A DNA stretch of 64,000 nucleotides. Origin: Escherichia coli. Its GTDB lineage: Bacteria; Pseudomonadota; Gammaproteobacteria; Enterobacterales; Enterobacteriaceae. Position 1 is the stretch's first letter. Every line of letters starts with the position of its first letter. Where the stretch lies: assembly GCF_965641715.1 (NCBI RefSeq), contig NZ_OZ282453.1; one strand, 5' to 3'. A model generated the notes under the pieces. That model did no database searches. It saw only the letters and a list, made by a program, of their open reading frames with translations, and was not told where the DNA came from. Positions 1 to 5,734 of the stretch are shown here, piece after piece. The position numbers were made by a program, and so were the translations under genes.

Positions 1-596
1 TAGGGGTAACCTGTAGGGATGTACCACCCACCTTAAAATAAAGGGGTAAAATCGCTTAGAATGCGTTACAGAGCGTCTGAGAAGCCATATTCACAGATTT
101 TACTAAAACCTCAGACTTCTAAGTGGTCTTTTTAACAGGAGGGTTCTTTCTCATGTATCACCCTCTCTTCCCGCCAAGTAAGCTACACAGACCTAGAGAA
201 TATGCCTTCACAGCATCTATATCAGGTCAGATTTAGAGGTCTTGATAGAATCTTCAAAGGTACTTGACAGATAACTATGAAGTTGTTAGGAAGGGGTGTT
301 TAACGGGGGAAGAGATACGATATAACCCGAAGGGGAGAGTATCATCTTAACAGTGATTGTAAGAGTAAAACTGAAAAGATACTTAACAGAACTACCAAGA
401 GGGAGCGATAAGACCAGAGGTAGTGACCTGTTAAACAGTTCGTTTCAAAGCTCTTAAGAGTCTGTTAAGTAAGGTCATGTGAACAATCATATCATTTTGT
501 CAATGCTTTTGTCTTTGACCTAAATCAATAAAATGTATCGTTTGATGTGCTTTTAAACAAAATAGTTAAAAATCTTTTTAGAGGGGCGCTTCGCTT

Positions 597-1265
597 GTGT
601 CACATCCAATAATCCATATCGGTCGTTATCATGGTGGTTCTGATGACTGGCGTACACCGTATCGTCTATTTCATAACCTGCATCGTGAGTATAGCTTCAG
701 TCTAGATGGCGCTGCAACTGAGCATGACGCATTGTTGCCACGGTTCACCGATGATATAAACCGTCAATCATGGGTTGGTGAACGGGTCTTCGTTAACCCG
801 CCGTTTAGCATGGCTGAACAGTTCCTCGCAAAAGCCCCTGAAGCTGATGTGTGTGTATGTCTGGTTCCGCACAGGTCAAAGACAACTTACTGGCTTCGGT
901 GTGTATATACAAACCCCTTCCTGCATGAGATTCGAACATTACACCGAGCGGTTAAATACCTTCCACCAGCAGGAAAGAGAGGTGTTGTAGCGCGTTCACC
1001 ATTTGCAAGCTGTGTTTTGATATACAGGAACACACCCCGTAAACCGAAGGTTGAAATTACCCAGACAATCTATTGTGGCGACACAATGCTTTTACTTGCC
1101 GTGGTTAATAGGGGTGGTTTACGTGGAAGACCTCATATACACGATGCACAGACGCTTGACAGGTTGATTAAAATGCATGACCAAGGGCAATCCGTCAAGA
1201 GTATCGCAGAATCGCTAAGAATGCCTCTAAGCACCACTTACAGGATTGTTCAAAGGTTGAGCTAA
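597..1265 (+). CDS. Phage Dam-family DNA N6-adenine methyltransferase with C-terminal HTH-like segment
   Basis: GTG start with GAGGGG RBS about 11 nt upstream; WRTP...GERVFVNPPFS motif typical of phage Dam-type MTases; C-terminal QSVKSIAESLRMPLSTTYRIVQRL resembles an HTH. Confidence 0.6.
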   Translation: MSHPIIHIGRYHGGSDDWRTPYRLFHNLHREYSFSLDGAATEHDALLPRFTDDINRQSWVGERVFVNPPFSMAEQFLAKAPEADVCVCLVPHRSKTTYWLRCVYTNPFLHEIRTLHRAVKYLPPAGKRGVVARSPFASCVLIYRNTPRKPKVEITQTIYCGDTMLLLAVVNRGGLRGRPHIHDAQTLDRLIKMHDQGQSVKSIAESLRMPLSTTYRIVQRLS

Positions 1266-1300
1266 AATTCTCATATAGAGCACTGATTATGAGAATGTTA

Positions 1301-1333
1301 AAGAGGCGATTTCCCCTTTCTGGGGTTATTCGC
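1301..1333 (+). repeat. About 30-nt element containing CCCCTTTCTGGGG hairpin followed by T-run (copy 1); possible MTase terminator
   Basis: aagaggcgatttcccctttctggggttattcgcttttt; a near copy occurs at 1521..1552. Confidence 0.4.
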
Positions 1334-1520
1334 TTTTTACTGGAAGGGTTATTTTACAGAGGTTTTTCAAACCCCCTCAATAATAAAAAACGAGCAACAA
1401 ACGAAGAGCGAGAAATAAAATATTGAGACTGGTGAACGGGGTCTGTAAAGATTGTTTAAGAAGTCGGTTTAGGGATTGGTAGATGATTCGGATGAAGCAT
1501 CCTCATAACAATACCAATTA

Positions 1521-1552
1521 GAAGGTGGCTCTCCCTTTCTGGGGATATCGCC
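1521..1552 (+). repeat. About 30-nt element containing CCCTTTCTGGGG hairpin (copy 2)
   Basis: gaaggtggctctccctttctggggatatcgcc, similar to 1301..1333. Confidence 0.4.
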
Positions 1553-1575
1553 TTGTATCTTAGTGAGTCCAGGAA

Positions 1576-1760
1576 GTTCTCTGTGAAGGGACTTGTCAGT
1601 CCTTTATATTGGCTAATTACAACTTATTGAAAAATAAGCATTTTTAGAAATCACTGTTAAGGTTACAGAGTTCTCTGTGAAGAGACTCGTCAGCTCTCTA
1701 TATTGGCTAATTACAACTCATTGAAAAATAAGCATTTTTAGAAATTGCTGTCAGAGAGGT
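1576..1760. repeat. Tandem direct repeat, 2 copies of about 94 bp (about 90 percent identical)
   Basis: gttctctgtgaag(g/a)gact(t/c)gtcag...tattggctaattacaac...ttgaaaaataagcatttttagaaat occurs at 1576 and again at 1670. Confidence 0.8.
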
Positions 1761-1833
1761 GAGTACTTGATAGATACAGCTTTCCGGTTCTGTCAAGATA
1801 TTTTTTAATAGATAGCACAAAATGCTAAAGATA

Positions 1834-1863
1834 CCCCTATACCATCACGTACAGGGGGTTTTG
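1834..1863 (+). terminator. Hairpin plus T-run (intrinsic terminator-like), between repeat region and minus-strand small genes
   Basis: cccctataccatcacgtacaggggg followed by ttttg. Confidence 0.35.
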
Positions 1864-1871
1864 AAGGGAGT

Positions 1872-2060
1872 TTAACGGGGTTCTGTGTGGTTATCTGTTC
1901 TGGTCCTGTCCTTGAGGTCAAATGACCATTCACGACCAAACAATCTGAACACGATAAACACCCGAACGATGAAATAGCGGAGCAGAAGACCTGCAATCAG
2001 CCCAACACCTCCACCAGCCCATACATCAGGTGACCCCAGCTCAGGAGGGAGATTTACCAT
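1872..2060 (-). CDS. Small predicted membrane protein (62 aa), unknown function
   Basis: Internal ATG with AGGAA RBS; single hydrophobic helix WAGGGVGLIAGLLLRYFIVRVFIVF; start overlaps the stop of the upstream 34-aa ORF (TAATG). Confidence 0.35.
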   Translation of the reverse strand: MVNLPPELGSPDVWAGGGVGLIAGLLLRYFIVRVFIVFRLFGREWSFDLKDRTRTDNHTEPR

Positions 2061-2164
2061 TAAATTTCCTGTGTGCAATGCAATACCATGTGACATACAT
2101 AGTTGATTCGGTTAGTTGGGCTTGTACCAACCCCTATCGAATAAACCTCATAGCCACGCTTCAT
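2060..2164 (-). CDS. Small ORF (34 aa) translationally coupled to the 62-aa membrane protein
   Basis: ATG preceded by GAGGGGGAA RBS immediately downstream of a minus-strand promoter; MKRGYEVYSIGVGTSPTNRINYVCHMVLHCTQEI. Confidence 0.25.
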   Translation of the reverse strand: MKRGYEVYSIGVGTSPTNRINYVCHMVLHCTQEI

Positions 2165-2186
2165 ATTTCCCCCTCTCTCATAAACC

Positions 2187-2216
2187 ATTATACCACAAAT
2201 GTTACGAAATTGTTAA
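2187..2216 (-). promoter_or_regulatory. Sigma70-like promoter (TTAACA, 18 nt spacer, TATAAT) on minus strand
   Basis: Reverse complement reads ttaacaatttcgtaacatttgtggtataat; drives the 34-aa and 62-aa ORFs. Confidence 0.45.
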
Positions 2217-2222
2217 AAATAC

Positions 2223-2251
2223 TTGACATTAGTCTTTGAAAATGCTAGTAT
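2223..2251 (+). promoter_or_regulatory. Sigma70-like promoter (TTGACA, 17 nt spacer, TAGTAT) on plus strand
   Basis: ttgacattagtctttgaaaatgctagtat, about 50 nt upstream of the 2300 operon; back to back with the minus-strand promoter. Confidence 0.45.
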
Positions 2252-2299
2252 TGTATATAAGTTAACAGAGAATTAACAATTATAAGGACTAGCTTATGA

Positions 2300-2857
2300 A
2301 TGAACGACAGAGAATTTAGAGCGATGCTTCAGGCATCGAGACAACGTAACAGATACAACTCCTACAGCTACACAGACACCCCCACCAGCTACGAACTACC
2401 CAAGCTCACCAGAGCAGAACGCAAAGGCCTTGATGAATTAATTCGTAGCATTACGCCACGAGATAGATTTATGCCAACCAGAAAGAGCACGAAGAACACT
2501 ATTAAAAATTATCTGGCTAACTTTGACAGCTACGAACAATTACCAAGTAAGCTTGATGATGTAATTATCGGATTCTGTAGAAGTGAAGGTCACCCGAAAT
2601 ACAACAAAAAACTATTTTATCTTCTAAAGAATCTTGACGAAATTAACTCAGCCACCGTGACAAATCATCTTCAGCGTCAAGCAACCAGACTTAGCCATGA
2701 ATTACCAAGCGATAAATATTGCGCTTTGCTTGCTGTAATGTGCGCAAAGTTAATTGGTGTTGTTGAGCATCATATTGCCGTTGGAAATATTGAGCCAATG
2801 GAAAACGAGCAACCAGATTTCGAGTTTGACCCGTATTTAGTTACAGAGGAATTTTAA
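2300..2857 (+). CDS. Hypothetical phage protein (185 aa)
   Basis: ORF with AAGGA RBS; first gene of a coupled operon; no recognisable motif. Confidence 0.5.
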   Translation: MNDREFRAMLQASRQRNRYNSYSYTDTPTSYELPKLTRAERKGLDELIRSITPRDRFMPTRKSTKNTIKNYLANFDSYEQLPSKLDDVIIGFCRSEGHPKYNKKLFYLLKNLDEINSATVTNHLQRQATRLSHELPSDKYCALLAVMCAKLIGVVEHHIAVGNIEPMENEQPDFEFDPYLVTEEF

Positions 2858-3136
2858 ATGAAGAAACACACTTTGACCCGTATTTCAGAAGAAGCCTTTC
2901 ACGAGCTTACCCGAATTAAACAGACAACTAACCTCCCTCATCAAACTGTTATGCAGCTTGCAATTGCTAAAGAGGTTACTGAGTCGGATTTACTGAAATA
3001 TCCAGTCTCTAAAGGTCGTAAGCACATCCGAATTACTCAGGACGCTTTAGATACTTTGAAGGCACTTAACAACTTTAAAATTGATATCGCCCGACTATTG
3101 AGTATTAAGATTCACAAGTTAGCAATGGGGGTTTAA
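2858..3136 (+). CDS. Hypothetical protein (92 aa), possible ribbon-helix-helix DNA-binding fold
   Basis: ATG directly after upstream stop; N-terminal HTLTRISEEAFHELTRIKQ...QTVMQLAIAKEV fits a strand-helix-helix pattern (inference). Confidence 0.4.
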   Translation: MKKHTLTRISEEAFHELTRIKQTTNLPHQTVMQLAIAKEVTESDLLKYPVSKGRKHIRITQDALDTLKALNNFKIDIARLLSIKIHKLAMGV

Positions 3137-3351
3137 TGCTATGCGTTACCTTTGAATACCACACGGATAAAATGATTCGCTACATCTCCGACCTCCTGAT
3201 TGAAGGAAACGGATTCGGTGACATCCATAACTCAAAAGATATTTTCATTAAAGCCATTGGCCCAAATGAAGTACTGAAAACAGCAGTTAAACCGGAATGG
3301 TTTGAGCGTCACAAGATTGAATTAGGTTATTGGGGTGAGGAGGTTTTATGA
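3136..3351 (+). CDS. Hypothetical protein (71 aa)
   Basis: TAATG overlap with upstream gene; no recognisable motif. Confidence 0.4.
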   Translation: MLCVTFEYHTDKMIRYISDLLIEGNGFGDIHNSKDIFIKAIGPNEVLKTAVKPEWFERHKIELGYWGEEVL

Positions 3352-3635
3352 AACCTTGGCATGAAGATGTTAGACGATATTTTACAGAACACCTTATCTA
3401 TGATGAATCCAGTGATTCCCTGTGCTGGTCTGATGGAGAGTCAGTCACGATAAACACCGACGACTACGGCAACAAAACATTTAATATAGGCCGATATACT
3501 TTCTACGTGAAATATGTTGTCTGGTTCCTTTATCATGGCTATCAATCCAACAAGCAAATTATCCATCGAAATGGTAACAGAGCCGATACCAGACCAAAAA
3601 ATCTTATGCAAGTCCGAGACTTTAAGAGAAATTAG
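3348..3635 (+). CDS. Small HNH-family endonuclease (95 aa)
   Basis: ATGA overlap with upstream gene, GAGGAGG RBS; motif IHRNGNRADTRPKNL resembles the HNH_3-type H-x-NGN-x-D-x-R-x-x-NL signature. Confidence 0.55.
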   Translation: MKPWHEDVRRYFTEHLIYDESSDSLCWSDGESVTINTDDYGNKTFNIGRYTFYVKYVVWFLYHGYQSNKQIIHRNGNRADTRPKNLMQVRDFKRN

Positions 3636-3642
3636 AAAAACA

Positions 3643-3766
3643 GCTTCTCAGACGCTCTCAATCGCATTCTAACGCAAAAAACTATCTTATTTTAGGGTGG
3701 GTAATACCACTGTACAGGCTACCCCTGAAAAAGACTGTTTAGCTCGTTACAGAGCGATTGAGGAGG
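3643..3766. promoter_or_regulatory. Inverted pair of operator-like 10-bp-periodic motifs flanking about 75 bp upstream of the 3792 gene
   Basis: 3643..3672 (minus orientation) reads ttagaatgcgattgagagcgtctgagaagc; 3745..3766 reads cgttacagagcgattgaggagg; both are related to 56..85. Confidence 0.4.
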
Positions 3767-3791
3767 TCTGGTAAAAAGGAGATTTTAAGAA

Positions 3792-4121
3792 ATGAGAGAA
3801 TTAAACTTCCCACTACAGATTTTTATTGATACCGACACCGCCATGATGATTCAGGCTTTCACTGATGTAGGTGTTAGCATTGACTTTGATAAGTTGTTAG
3901 AGTTAATGACTGATAATGCGGAAAGCATCTCTGACTTTATTCAGTCGGTGGAGTTTAACGAGCCTCGAATGATGCTACCAATTAAAGACAGCAACATGAA
4001 AAGATTGGTTATCGAGCAAACGAACAAATTCAGCGTTAGCCCTGAAAAATATCTCAAGGCGGCTATAGCAATTTTGTACGCTGACAATATTTTGGTGACG
4101 GATTCGAAGGTGGTGCATTAA
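3792..4121 (+). CDS. Hypothetical acidic protein (109 aa)
   Basis: AAGGAG RBS; no recognisable motif. Confidence 0.5.
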   Translation: MRELNFPLQIFIDTDTAMMIQAFTDVGVSIDFDKLLELMTDNAESISDFIQSVEFNEPRMMLPIKDSNMKRLVIEQTNKFSVSPEKYLKAAIAILYADNILVTDSKVVH

Positions 4122-4186
4122 TGGAATTGGTGATTATCTGTTTTGTATTGATTGGTATGATTGCAGGTGCATCTATTAAAGTATAA
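4121..4186 (+). CDS. Tiny hydrophobic peptide (21 aa, MELVIICFVLIGMIAGASIKV), translationally coupled
   Basis: ATG overlaps TAA of upstream gene (TAATG); entirely hydrophobic single-helix peptide. Confidence 0.25.
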   Translation: MELVIICFVLIGMIAGASIKV

Positions 4187-4211
4187 ATGTTACCAATCTG
4201 TTAAAAATCTG

Positions 4212-4240
4212 TTGACAAATAACCTTGAGCATGACATAAT
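4212..4240 (+). promoter_or_regulatory. Near-consensus sigma70 promoter (TTGACA, 17 nt spacer, CATAAT)
   Basis: ttgacaaataaccttgagcatgacataat. Confidence 0.55.
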
Positions 4241-4246
4241 TGTATA

Positions 4247-4503
4247 TATATGAGGATAGTCTTCTATCCGAAGTCTATAGGGAGAGCAATTCTCCTTGAA
4301 TTAAAATATTAATCATCTCTACATCAATGATAACTATATTCTGAGTTGGTGAGGTATGTTCTATACCGAACATTCTGAAAGGTGCAATGCTTTTCGTCAT
4401 GGCCTTTCAGTTTAGTCTGAGAGGCTATCTCAAAAAGTGCTTAATCATTCATTCATTGAATCCTTTACAGCTTTGCCCTAATCATGAGTTAGGGCGTTTC
4501 TTT
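4247..4503 (+). ncRNA. Candidate small RNA or structured leader (about 255 nt) from promoter to first intrinsic terminator
   Basis: No ORF of 60 aa or more in about 460 nt; several stable hairpins (4254..4269, 4356..4373); ends at terminator 4475..4503. Confidence 0.3.
4475..4503 (+). terminator. Intrinsic terminator (7-bp GC-containing stem plus T-run)
   Basis: gccctaatcatgagttagggc then gtttcttt. Confidence 0.5.
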
Positions 4504-4574
4504 AAGAGTTTTAAGCAGAGCTTTTAAAGAAAGTTTTTCCTGAAACTTCGTTAACGTTATAAAGCAAACCTTCA

Positions 4575-4610
4575 AAGCCCTTCACAGATTCAATGTTTAG
4601 GGCTTTTCTT
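4575..4610 (+). terminator. Second hairpin plus T-run (terminator-like)
   Basis: aagcccttcacagattcaatgtttagggctt then ttctt. Confidence 0.4.
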
Positions 4611-4707
4611 AATAGAGCATCTTTAATAAATCGTTAAGTCATCTTCTAAGTGTATTGGCGTTGAAGGTGCTCTGTTAAGAAATAAACCACACTTAGAGGA
4701 AGTTATA

Positions 4708-5418
4708 ATGACAAACGATTTATATATTAACGGTAAAAAGGTTGATAGCTTCGGTGACTGGTCGCCACAGACTGAACATCCAGCTATCACTATTCAGCGC
4801 AAAGAACACGATGAAAGAATTGCACTTGAGCAAGAAATCCGAATGTCACCAAAGGTAATTTCCTTTGTGGCTCCTGAGCCTCAAGATATGCCGGATATTT
4901 GCAAAACTGAAGCATTGCTTGAGCTTGAAAAGAAATTTTACCCAGCTTTAAAAGCACAGCGTCTTAAACTAGATGACGCTTACAGTAAAGTTACCCTGAT
5001 GCAATCAGCTATTGAGCCATCAGAATTTGAGATTCAGGATGAATTGTCACAGAAACCATTTGTCTATTACCAATATGAAGACAATGATGGTTTTGGTACT
5101 TTTCCTGAGAATATCCCAGACGTGATTAATAATCCGATGGATGGATATCGAATTGTGAAGATGGTTAAGGCATCAAGAGGTGCTGGTCAGTTTATTTACA
5201 TGACTAATAAGAGCGATGAAGAACTCGCTGAACTTGCTAGACAGAACATCTTGGCATCACGTAACAAGCAGCTTGATAATGTTAAGTTGTATCTCTCAAG
5301 AGAGCTTCAGGCTATGAAAGACCTTGTGAAAGAATATGAAGATGCTAAGAAGATTGCTATGCAAGCCGATATTGAGCAGTTAGTGAAGATTTCTAGCAAA
5401 TATGCAAAGGCTATTTAA
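4708..5418 (+). CDS. Hypothetical phage protein (236 aa), charged with coiled-coil-like C-terminus
   Basis: GAGGAAG RBS; first gene of a co-directional module ending at 8794. Confidence 0.5.
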   Translation: MTNDLYINGKKVDSFGDWSPQTEHPAITIQRKEHDERIALEQEIRMSPKVISFVAPEPQDMPDICKTEALLELEKKFYPALKAQRLKLDDAYSKVTLMQSAIEPSEFEIQDELSQKPFVYYQYEDNDGFGTFPENIPDVINNPMDGYRIVKMVKASRGAGQFIYMTNKSDEELAELARQNILASRNKQLDNVKLYLSRELQAMKDLVKEYEDAKKIAMQADIEQLVKISSKYAKAI

Positions 5419-5437
5419 TTATGATGTGAGGTGAAGA

Positions 5438-5653
5438 ATGATTGATTTAACTGAACGCTATGAAGTTATTAAGTCTGTTTGTGAGAACTTAAAGCTTCAG
5501 ACTAAACCAAAGCTACGAATTAAAAATCAGCATCAAGTTATCACCTCACACAAACCAAAGGTTAGAAGGATTCCTTCATGGTGTATTGACCGTGTTCCTG
5601 CTGATGCTCAATTAATTGGTGAGTCTGGTTCTTACACTTATATCCTTCATTAA
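5438..5653 (+). CDS. Hypothetical phage protein (71 aa)
   Basis: GAGGTGAAG RBS; immediately upstream of the tape-measure-like gene. Confidence 0.45.
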   Translation: MIDLTERYEVIKSVCENLKLQTKPKLRIKNQHQVITSHKPKVRRIPSWCIDRVPADAQLIGESGSYTYILH

Positions 5654-5734
5654 AAATTACAAAGGGGAGAGATTAGCCTTAATTGGTTAGTCTTTCCCTT
5701 TTTCGTATATGAACACTTAAGAGGTGAAACATGA

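Follow-up and report, generated by a model that had tools for sequence, protein, structure and literature searches.

The first 596 nucleotides (nt) of a 64,000-nt stretch of Escherichia coli DNA (contig NZ_OZ282453.1 of the RefSeq assembly GCF_965641715.1; hereafter the window, to which positions refer unless a phage is named) are neither an untranslated region nor a cluster of micro-genes, but lie in the middle of a long, conserved gene-free arm of a chromosomal island. The sequence of this island marks it as a putative satellite, or a similar kind of parasite, of the virulent Felix-O1-like myoviruses. Within the arm, positions 293–477 form a structured element whose two hairpins, A and B, are both preserved by compensatory substitutions, and hairpin B appears to be built from sequence of the phage genome end. 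The region 1–596 is probably neither a gene nor a group of very small ones but a signal by which the island exploits the phage. More specifically, we tentatively favor the view, at somewhat less than even confidence, that the module 293–477 is a helper-derived cis-acting signal that acts at the DNA level in end processing, packaging or replication dependent on the helper. The lack of long open reading frames (ORFs) in 596 base pairs (bp) of 40% GC DNA is by itself unremarkable. What is remarkable is that the homologous stretch has no annotated coding sequence among the matches listed (440 E. coli genomes), and that it is part of 1.6–2.9 kb without genes.

Hairpins Preserved by Compensatory Substitutions

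A preliminary description of this DNA, made from its letters alone, had counted at least six TTAACAG-like words in positions 1–596. The count is correct: there are five exact copies of TTAACAG, three on the + strand (132, 347, 383) and two on the − strand (428, 462), as well as a single TTAACGG at 300. Compared with 3000 dinucleotide-preserving shuffles of the 596 bp, which also served for the tracts described below, the five exact copies stand against a mean of 0.15, a number that none of the shuffles reached, and the six copies of TTAAC[AG]G against 0.20. The purine-rich G tracts of the same description exist as well, all four matches to G[AG][AG]GGG lying on the + strand (138, 290, 329, 581), but their enrichment is marginal (4 versus 0.96 expected, with 66 of the 3000 shuffles reaching four). 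Four of the six words are helix arms of hairpin B (Table 1). The outer pair of words, at 347 and 462, is nearly invariant, while the inner pair, at 383 and 428, covaries; the word at 300 is nearly or fully invariant, and RNAalifold predicts an alternative pairing of 299–306 with 462–469.

The evidence for the two hairpins comes from 18 distinct sequences of the island family. In these, 96.1% of the alignment cells of A and B together form standard pairs, versus 36–49% in controls in which the 3' partners were slid by 1–3 columns. Eleven of the 40 pairs change on both sides, as against one to three in the slid controls, and the covariation score of 0.261 compares with at most 0.076 in the controls; none of 500 shuffles reaches either the pairing or the score. 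In hairpin A, where 97.8% of the cells are paired, double changes affect three of the five outer pairs (GATAC/GTATC, GAACC/GGTTC, GTAAC/GTTAC). The pairing has been kept even though the module is only 66% identical between sequence types, its neighbors being 94–95% identical. A covariance model built from ten sequences of the window's own type, with the divergent type left out, nonetheless fitted the latter: it finds exactly one copy in every island, the divergent type included, at a fixed position and with none elsewhere in the islands. Upstream of the module, a smaller hairpin (C) is kept in all variants despite a replaced loop, and has an alternative form, GGAGGGG/CCCCTCT.

Relationship to the Genome End of Felix-O1-Like Phages

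The island is tied to Felix-O1-like phages by two tail genes that are close copies of Felixounavirus ones, the tape-measure gene and its neighbor. Its Dit-like tail protein is 75% identical in amino acids (aa) to the product of the gene that, in 301 phage records (most of them from Felix-O1-like phages), stands beside the tape-measure gene, and a 519-nt stretch of the gene is 92% identical in nucleotides to phage NBEco005. The record of NBEco005 has an exact 651-bp repeat at both ends and contains no genes between 87155 and, across the repeat, 1240. Its 2358 terminal nt hold 37 copies of YTGTTAR on one strand, against 45 in the other 85.9 kb. The same one-strand bias marks the terminal regions of Felix O1 (23 versus 3), the Mooglevirus Mijalis (14 versus 3) and the Suspvirus SUSP2 (19 versus 4). 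This terminal region is conserved over 256 phage records and is unannotated in most of the matches listed. For Felix O1, short terminal repeats have only been inferred, and no function was found for the region (Whichard et al. 2010, PMC3185647).

Several comparisons connect hairpin B with this region. With sensitive scoring, a blastn search with positions 398–494 finds a Felixounavirus-like IMG/VR contig, L160 (E 9e-6), Mijalis (5e-4) and SUSP2 (0.004); the equivalent segment of an island relative, L013, finds the same three at 1e-9, 2e-8 and 2e-7. The 5' arm (341–399) gives alignments with the phage word array as well, but in the reverse direction (E 0.001–0.009). An exact 16-mer, TTAAGAGTCTGTTAAG, is shared between 454–469 of the window and 534–549 of NBEco005, and 382–394 of the window is the reverse complement of NBEco005 526–538. 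In total, positions 1–2300 share 25 exact words of at least 10 nt with the phage junction region, versus 8.9 in shuffles (maximum 20). The sequence GTGACCATGTTAA is kept in Felix O1, Mijalis, SUSP2, L160 and NBEco005, its island counterpart being GTGACCTGTTAA, and the covariance model matches L160 at 22.6 bits. Given these shared words, the alignments in both orientations and the model match, the loop and 3' arm of hairpin B amount to a compressed copy of the phage terminal-repeat sequence, the 5' arm being its inverted copy.

A separate 51-nt piece of the island (1470–1520), made of nested inverted repeats (ATTGGTA...GGATG-AAG-CATCC...TACCAAT), is identical to NBEco005 257–307, inside the terminal repeat. 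It occurs in only three of about 300 Felix-O1-like records and in one IMG/VR contig, at differing positions and in differing orientations (elsewhere and reversed in the contig), and some islands carry a second copy about 27 nt from attL, the left attachment (att) site. It looks like a tiny mobile insert, or the footprint of recombination between phage and island. The possibility that it is a universal helper packaging (pac) site was rejected in view of its rare carriers and its varying position and orientation. Furthermore, between 81.4 and 86.9 kb of NBEco005 (L031 and L032) each small early gene is preceded by one of two intergenic modules of about 90 nt, which consist of a sigma-70-like promoter and a G-rich hairpin (TTTACA..GGGGCTTA-loop-TAAGCCCC or TAAATT-ACTAATCAAC-GGGGAGGG..CCCC). 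The idea that the island's units of word and G-rich hairpin are homologues of these early-gene modules was dropped, since an nhmmer profile of 11 modules detected nothing in the islands (best E 0.36).

The Gene-Free Arm and the Island Family

Positions 1 to about 10.5 kb of the window belong to the island, and the E. coli chromosome follows from there on with wrbA, yccJ, agp, yccE, cbpAM, torDAC, torR, torT and torS. The chromosomal part is 98–99% identical to many E. coli genomes; its conserved genes have a GC fraction of 0.50–0.56, versus 0.36–0.45 in positions 1–10500. A large serine recombinase has integrated the island, which is about 11.5 kb long and of 40% GC, within the 5' end of wrbA. 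Its genes are, in order, that of a Dam-type methyltransferase with a helix-turn-helix (HTH) domain, then, after about 1 kb without genes, five small genes including one for an HNH protein, followed by those for a 236-aa protein, the tape-measure protein, the Dit-like protein and the recombinase. Two features by which phage satellites are recognized are present: an integrase of its own with att sites that share a core (GTGCTTT), and a genetic link to a particular helper combined with an incomplete complement of virion and packaging genes, only the tape-measure and Dit-like tail genes being recognized. No capsid, portal or terminase gene is recognizable in the island, Pfam, PHROGs and NCBIfam having given no capsid or terminase match, and the proteins of 185, 236, 109, 92 and 71 aa have no match in Pfam, PHROGs, NCBIfam, PADLOC, the Protein Data Bank (PDB) or a phage tblastn search. 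The 236-aa protein is called a 'transposase' by the NCBI pipeline, without any family match.

The arm itself is devoid of sizeable genes, as the preliminary description had stated in finding no ORF of at least 60 aa: the longest in positions 1–596 has 37 aa (123–236, GTG start), and the Dam gene begins immediately afterwards. The gene-free left arm is about 1.6 kb long in this island, and its counterparts in relatives reach as much as 2.9 kb. In strain ECNB21-M121, which has a related island at the same wrbA site, attL lies about 980 nt upstream of the base that matches position 1, and the interval from ymdF to the Dam gene carries no annotation. Where the Dam gene is missing from a relative, the gene-free stretch extends over 2.6–2.9 kb with no ORF longer than 72 aa. 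The stretch is not the 3' untranslated region of a gene ending before the window, a possibility that had been raised together with that of unconserved motifs, because the DNA is gene-free for those 980 nt up to attL and for 2.6–2.9 kb in the Dam-less relatives; the motifs, moreover, are kept.

Because the identities of its parts differ and the BLAST matches break at about 130, 164, 290 and 516, positions 1–596 are seen to be a mosaic of four conserved non-coding modules. Identity to a collinear relative (L003) is 95% in 1–128, 64% in 129–292, 66% in 293–477 and 94% in 478–596. The last of these is an AT-rich block that ends in the 18-mer AGAGGGGCGCTTCGCTTG, which is kept in elements with and without Dam and forms a junction, the optional Dam cassette being inserted directly after it. 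Dam is absent in L004, L005, L007–L010 and L013, and the left-arm genes vary among relatives. In some islands (L006, 13342–14286; L029, 3832–4782), a 314–316-aa HTH_36 protein replaces both the gene-free stretch of about 1 kb after Dam and the 185-aa gene. This protein could be a replication initiator, and the replacement suggests alternative replication modules within the family.

The same architecture is found at four chromosomal sites (yecE, yciI/tonB, yegS/yegR and ymdF/wrbA), with copies of about 11–12 kb at each that end with the recombinase. The family is present in 440–476 of 5426 complete E. coli genomes (about 8%, or one in twelve). Sequence like that of positions 1–596 occurs in 440 of them, always on the chromosome and with no annotated feature among the matches listed. 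Outside E. coli it was found only in E. albertii, three metagenome contigs and four IMG/VR contigs. A scan of 100,044 species genomes with the invariant 18-mer returned only Escherichia (E. albertii) besides chance matches. Six IMG/VR contigs of 20–55 kb contain the 18-mer, of which four also match the hairpin model, and the Dam protein had no relative in the IMG/VR protein scan. The metagenome search used a pattern that was too degenerate, and most of its 120 loci were chance matches; the three true relatives are all integrated copies with chromosomal flanks. That metagenome contigs of about 11.9 kb might represent free circular island DNA was rejected, as their ends carry tonB/yciI or ymdF/wrbA flanks. 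The literature searched contains no description of such an element, which reflects the coverage of that search and is no proof of novelty.

Possible Functions of the Structured Module

In the interpretation that we favor, the arm would be the island's copy of a cis-acting signal from the genome end of the helper. Its conserved words would be bound by one or more helper proteins that act on the phage terminal repeat, for which concatemer processing and packaging, or end replication, are the candidate steps. The selected self-complementarity would allow the DNA to extrude or fold back as a hairpin during processing, and the island might thereby be handled like a phage genome end. The helper protein, the folding strand and the step are all putative, as is the satellite status, which is drawn from sequence comparison. 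Carried further, the proposal would describe an as yet undescribed satellite family of virulent Felix-O1-like phages, in which 293–477 serves as a helper-recognition switch. This would be a fold-back of the terminal word array that is mistaken for a genome end by the end-processing or packaging proteins of the phage, or that is opened by CUGUUAAG-rich nucleic acid of the helper. We consider this fuller version possible, but doubtful.

Pairing statistics bear on whether the module acts as DNA. Of 713 paired cells, 680 are Watson–Crick pairs, 5 (0.7%) are G-U and 14 are A-C, and this near absence of wobble fits DNA pairing, or a constraint on both strands, better than an RNA made from one strand. 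Folding-energy z-scores range from −1.2 to −3.9, the + strand being favored in one sequence type and the − strand in the other; the lack of a consistent preference likewise fits DNA pairing better than one-strand RNA. Neither wobble pairs nor folding energy singles out one strand for an RNA.

Several observations weigh against a DNA signal taken from the helper. Homology to the helper genome end is found for the window's type only: the alternative type of hairpin B, which accounts for 8 of the 18 distinct sequences, has no detectable homology to the phage terminal region, and weakly matches another phage intergenic region, near 50.5 kb (E 0.004–0.03). A hairpin-B-like match inside the phage terminal region is weak (17.3 bits) and unconvincing alone. 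Some three sequence lineages supply the covariation, and the pairs were counted in an alignment that had been fitted to the model. Induction, replication and packaging of the island by a phage, as well as the position of its DNA ends, are putative, and so is any role of the word arrays in the Felix-O1-like phages themselves. In addition, the G tracts lie on the + strand only, which suggests a + strand RNA; GC and AT skew are positive, amounting to a purine skew on that strand; and R-U wobble variation is seen in hairpin C, at its base, and where hairpin A has an optional extension.

These last three features count in favor of a structured regulatory RNA, the main alternative, though on the whole a rather doubtful one. 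Positions 293–477, perhaps with hairpin C, would be transcribed, the product being either a cis-acting leader or an antisense 'immunity' RNA comparable to P4 CI RNA, P1 c4 RNA or the copy-control RNAs of plasmids. Its UUAACAG and CUGUUAA segments would pair mutually, with copies in the 5' regions of island genes (2262, 4672, 7937), or with CUGUUAAG-rich transcripts of the helper, and the island would be kept silent until infection, or the phage would be interfered with. The long bulged hairpins are indeed kept by compensation while the sequence splits into discrete types, a combination typical of the specificity types of antisense RNAs. There are three copies of TTAAC[AG]G and two of CUGUUAA, for which alternative pairings are predicted. 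Over the island, TTAAC[AG]G occurs at 132, 300, 347, 383 and 2262 and CTGTTAA at 428, 462, 1654, 4198 and 4672; the words are 5.5 times denser in intergenic DNA than in genes, with 13 of 20 in about 25% of the sequence. Transcription of both strands would also explain the missing wobble pairs.

In P4, the CI RNA with seqA and seqC, and in P1 and P7, c4, an RNA released by processing confers immunity through pairing with complementary sites that recur within its own leader. The module resembles these systems in its repeated, mutually complementary short sequences within an untranslated region and in a structure kept by covariation. It differs from them in that G-U pairs are nearly absent, that Rfam 15 gives no match at E up to 1 in positions 1–12000 or in the island parts of L002, L008 and L010, and that no conserved sigma-70 promoter or intrinsic terminator brackets 293–477 on either strand, only weak, unconserved sigma-70-like matches being present. 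The modest z-scores and the change of favored strand between types also argue against an RNA. Repeated complementary targets are a feature shared with the P4 CI and P1 c4 type, but the resemblance alone is insufficient for membership. No tRNA or tmRNA was found. The words were also considered as −35 hexamers (TTAACA) and rejected, as none of the six sites in 1–596 has a usable −10 hexamer 16–18 nt downstream; only the TTAACA sites at 1660 and 2216, outside this region and on the − strand, have one.

An unlikely explanation is that the region is a recombination scaffold without a function of its own, that is, a hotspot for cassettes (Dam, a small serine recombinase, HNH-AP2 and HTH genes) whose conserved blocks are only homology anchors for the exchange of cassettes and phage DNA, and whose inverted repeats owe their complementarity to template-switch (quasi-palindrome) correction and not to selection. 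It would account for breakpoints at about 130, 164, 290 and 516 that adjoin conserved words, for a Dam cassette that lies exactly after the 18-mer and is bounded by similar motifs, for the differing left-arm genes, and for a 51-nt piece whose changing places and orientations imply exchange between island and phage. Template-switch correction, however, should produce a perfect palindrome, and here the bulges and internal loops are kept. Helices without word content (B3, B5 and hairpin A) covary too, and the block 478–596 and three words do not vary between types whose sequences are a third different in other parts. The presence of exactly one copy per element at a fixed position also speaks against it.

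We consider it very unlikely that the region is the replication origin of the island, with the words as initiator sites and the AT-rich 478–580 as the unwinding region. The block is AT-rich and nearly invariant, with repeated TTTTGTC; satellites such as PLE (discussed below) have non-coding origins; and some relatives have the HTH_36 protein nearby, a domain common in replication initiators. The words, however, are inverted and paired instead of being direct iterons, most family members, including the island of this window, have no recognizable initiator, and the only tandem repeats of the arm are at 1573–1760. The combination expected of an iteron-type origin, direct repeats beside an AT-rich stretch together with an initiator gene, was not found in 1–596. 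Of the preliminary proposal of a non-coding, maybe regulatory or origin region, what survives is that the DNA is non-coding, conserved and structured. Origin iterons do not, the words occurring in both orientations and four of the six forming paired arms of covarying helices. A cluster of micro-ORFs, also proposed there, is scarcely credible: an ATG at 153 with AGGAGG 8 nt upstream does open a 27-aa frame to 236, as had been noted, and GGAGG-N9-ATG occurs near 320 in another sequence type, but the frame after the equivalent ATG has 9 aa (L001 type) or is different in relatives, neither frames nor peptides are conserved between types, substitutions track base-pairing and not codons, and the Shine–Dalgarno-like tracts are hairpin arms, AGGAGG being the 5' arm of the conserved hairpin C.

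Comparison with Known Systems and Significance

Mimicry of a helper's packaging site is known from other satellites. P4 carries the cos site of P2, and cos-type Staphylococcus aureus pathogenicity islands (SaPIs) such as SaPIbov5 carry that of their helper. Like these, the present island is an integrated element without a terminase of its own, in which a short non-coding stretch is homologous to a signal at the genome end of the helper. Unlike theirs, its helper would be a virulent myovirus with a short direct terminal repeat and not a cos phage. The likeness amounts to about 70–80% similarity over about 100–120 nt plus shared words instead of a near-identical site; the island sequence is folded into a hairpin with an inverted copy; and the packaging of this island is putative. 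A second comparison is with the concatemer junction of the T7 type, in which short repeat arrays (SRL and SRR) lie beside the terminal repeat. Chung and Hinkle reportedly proposed in 1990 a hairpin intermediate for duplicating the T7 terminal repeat. Felix-O1-like phages similarly have direct terminal repeats and a gene-free end region dense in one-strand arrays of a 7-nt word, and the likeness offers a DNA-level reason for a hairpin beside such words. In contrast to T7, to which Felix-O1-like phages are unrelated, the well-supported hairpin is in the satellite and not in the phage. The literature examined (PMC3185647) contains no description of packaging signals for Felix-O1-like phages.

The phage-inducible chromosomal island-like element (PLE) of Vibrio cholerae is a satellite of the virulent myovirus ICP1. 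The two elements have in common that they are chromosomal islands with a large serine recombinase, an association with a virulent myovirus and sizeable non-coding regions. The present island differs in being about 11.5 kb long, in residing in Escherichia and in having tape-measure and Dit-like genes that resemble those of a helper, which PLE is not known to have. No homology to PLE proteins was seen, and no search aimed at it was made.

Felix-O1-like phages are widely used for typing, biocontrol and therapy of Salmonella and E. coli, and no satellite of theirs turned up in the searchable literature. An island present in about 8% of complete E. coli genomes could affect the efficacy of these phages, and it could also move chromosomal DNA. 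The conserved hairpin and the word arrays point to cis-acting signals at the genome ends of the Ounavirinae, and if the module really is a helper-recognition switch, it would provide a first handle on the unmapped packaging signals of this group. For annotation, the 1.6–2.9 kb of 'empty' DNA in these islands are under structural constraint, and filling them with micro-ORFs is unwarranted. The region is more interesting than generic intergenic DNA, and, judged from its sequence, is best filed as the putative helper-mimicking non-coding signal of a satellite.

Coordinates and Additional Observations

Table 1. Positions of the features of the arm and the island in the window.
Feature	Position	Strand	Description
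Module M1, non-coding	1–128	+	Left end cut by window edge; only in a subset of relatives; breakpoint ~130
Module M2, variable, non-coding	129–292		Breakpoints ~130, ~164, ~290; 64% identical to L003, flanks 94–95%
TTAACAG (132–138), directly followed by hairpin C	132–167	+	GGAGGGT 139–145 / ACCCTCT 161–167
Word TTTAACGG	299–306	+	Invariant in the 18 distinct family sequences aligned (one has TTTAACAG)
Hairpin A	314–343		GATAC 314–318 / GTATC 339–343; inner stem CCC 326–328 / GGG 333–335
Hairpin B	346–469		~125 nt, bulged; helices B1–B5
Helix B1	346–353 / 462–469		CTTAACAG / CTGTTAAG; nearly invariant
Helix B2	360–365 / 451–456		
Helix B3	372–376 / 443–447		3 double-changed pairs; 100% paired; TGAAA/TTTCA, TGAGA/TCTCA
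Helix B4	383–389 / 428–434		2 double-changed pairs; 100% paired; TTAACAG/CTGTTAA, TAAACA/TGTTTA
Helix B5	391–396 / 419–424		3 double-changed pairs; 92% paired; CTACC/GGTAG, CTCTT/AAGAG
Segment homologous to the Ounavirinae terminal-repeat region	398–494	+	Hairpin B from its loop through its 3' arm, and the ~25 nt that follow
AT-rich block, nearly invariant	478–597		Ends in AGAGGGGCGCTTCGCTTG (580–597); almost every column invariant in 14 sequences
Dam-type N6-adenine methyltransferase (orphan), fused to a C-terminal HTH	597–1265	+	Pfam PF05869 (5.7e-13) and HTH_7; orphan methyltransferase by PADLOC
Tape-measure protein	5735–7864		
Dit-like tail protein	8000–8794		
Large serine recombinase, right end of island	8814–10457	−	Pfam Resolvase, Recombinase, Zn_ribbon_recom; same position in all relatives
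attR crossover core GTGCTTT	10533–10539		Within the 5' end of wrbA

Of the two attachment sites, attR (the right one) reads ACTAGTGCTTT up to the junction and ATTATTCC after it. The attL site of a relative at the same location (L033) reads ATGGCTAAAGTTCTGGTGCTTT followed by TACATAG, and both share the core in wrbA. The island supplies a substitute start for wrbA at 10509. The gene is intact after the insertion (10509–11114), its first codons being replaced by those of the island in comparison with the native MAKVLVLYYS.... The arms of the phage-type attachment site attP contain half-sites like GTGTTAAG and GTGTTTAG.

Several further sequences were noted in the modules that flank the hairpins. 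M1 holds a sigma-70-like TTAAAA-N18-TAGAAT (33–62) and a predicted stem, GTCTGAGA / TCTCAGAC, which shows no double compensatory changes. In M2, no promoter is claimed for TTGACA-N17-TAGGAA (264–292), whose −10-like hexamer lacks the final T and is unconserved. The block 478–597 contains no convincing sigma-70 promoter, the sole match being AAGACA-N18-TATGAT on the − strand from 515 to 486. An inverted paralogue of 1–128, about 73–76% identical, is located at 3603–3728 on the − strand, where it overlaps the HNH gene at its 3' end as well as the intergenic region that comes next. It is present in 7 of 13 relative loci, including some without the module 1–128, and the blocks common to both copies are AGGGGTA, ACCCACC-TAAAATAA, TTAGAATGCG and AGAGCGTCTGAGAAGC. 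A perfect 13-nt inverted repeat, TTGTCTTTGACCT / AGGTCAAAGACAA, links 509–521 in the invariant block with 873–885 inside the Dam coding sequence, and may be due to chance.

Downstream of the Dam gene, the motif CCCTTTCTGGGG(T/A)TATCGC is repeated at 1303–1340 and 1525–1555. The copy at 1303–1340 forms a stem, GCGA..CCCC-loop-GGGG..TCGC, followed by TTTTT, and is terminator-like; a 19-mer of it is found inverted in the right-end non-coding region of the phage (87340–87358). A tandem unit of about 95 nt is present twice at 1573–1760 (1575–1657 and 1669–1751). It is kept in relatives and contains an AT-rich stretch, which makes it a better candidate than 1–596 for an iteron-type replication origin. 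Finally, strong sigma-70-like promoters stand back to back at 2187–2251. The one on the + strand (TTGACA-17-TAGTAT, 10 of 12 positions matching, TG-extended) faces the operon of the 185-aa gene, and the one on the − strand (TTAACA-18-TATAAT, 11 of 12) faces a small ORF, given as a 62-aa protein in the annotation of relatives, beyond which lies a terminator-like hairpin (1857–1834). This promoter pair may be the genetic switch of the island.

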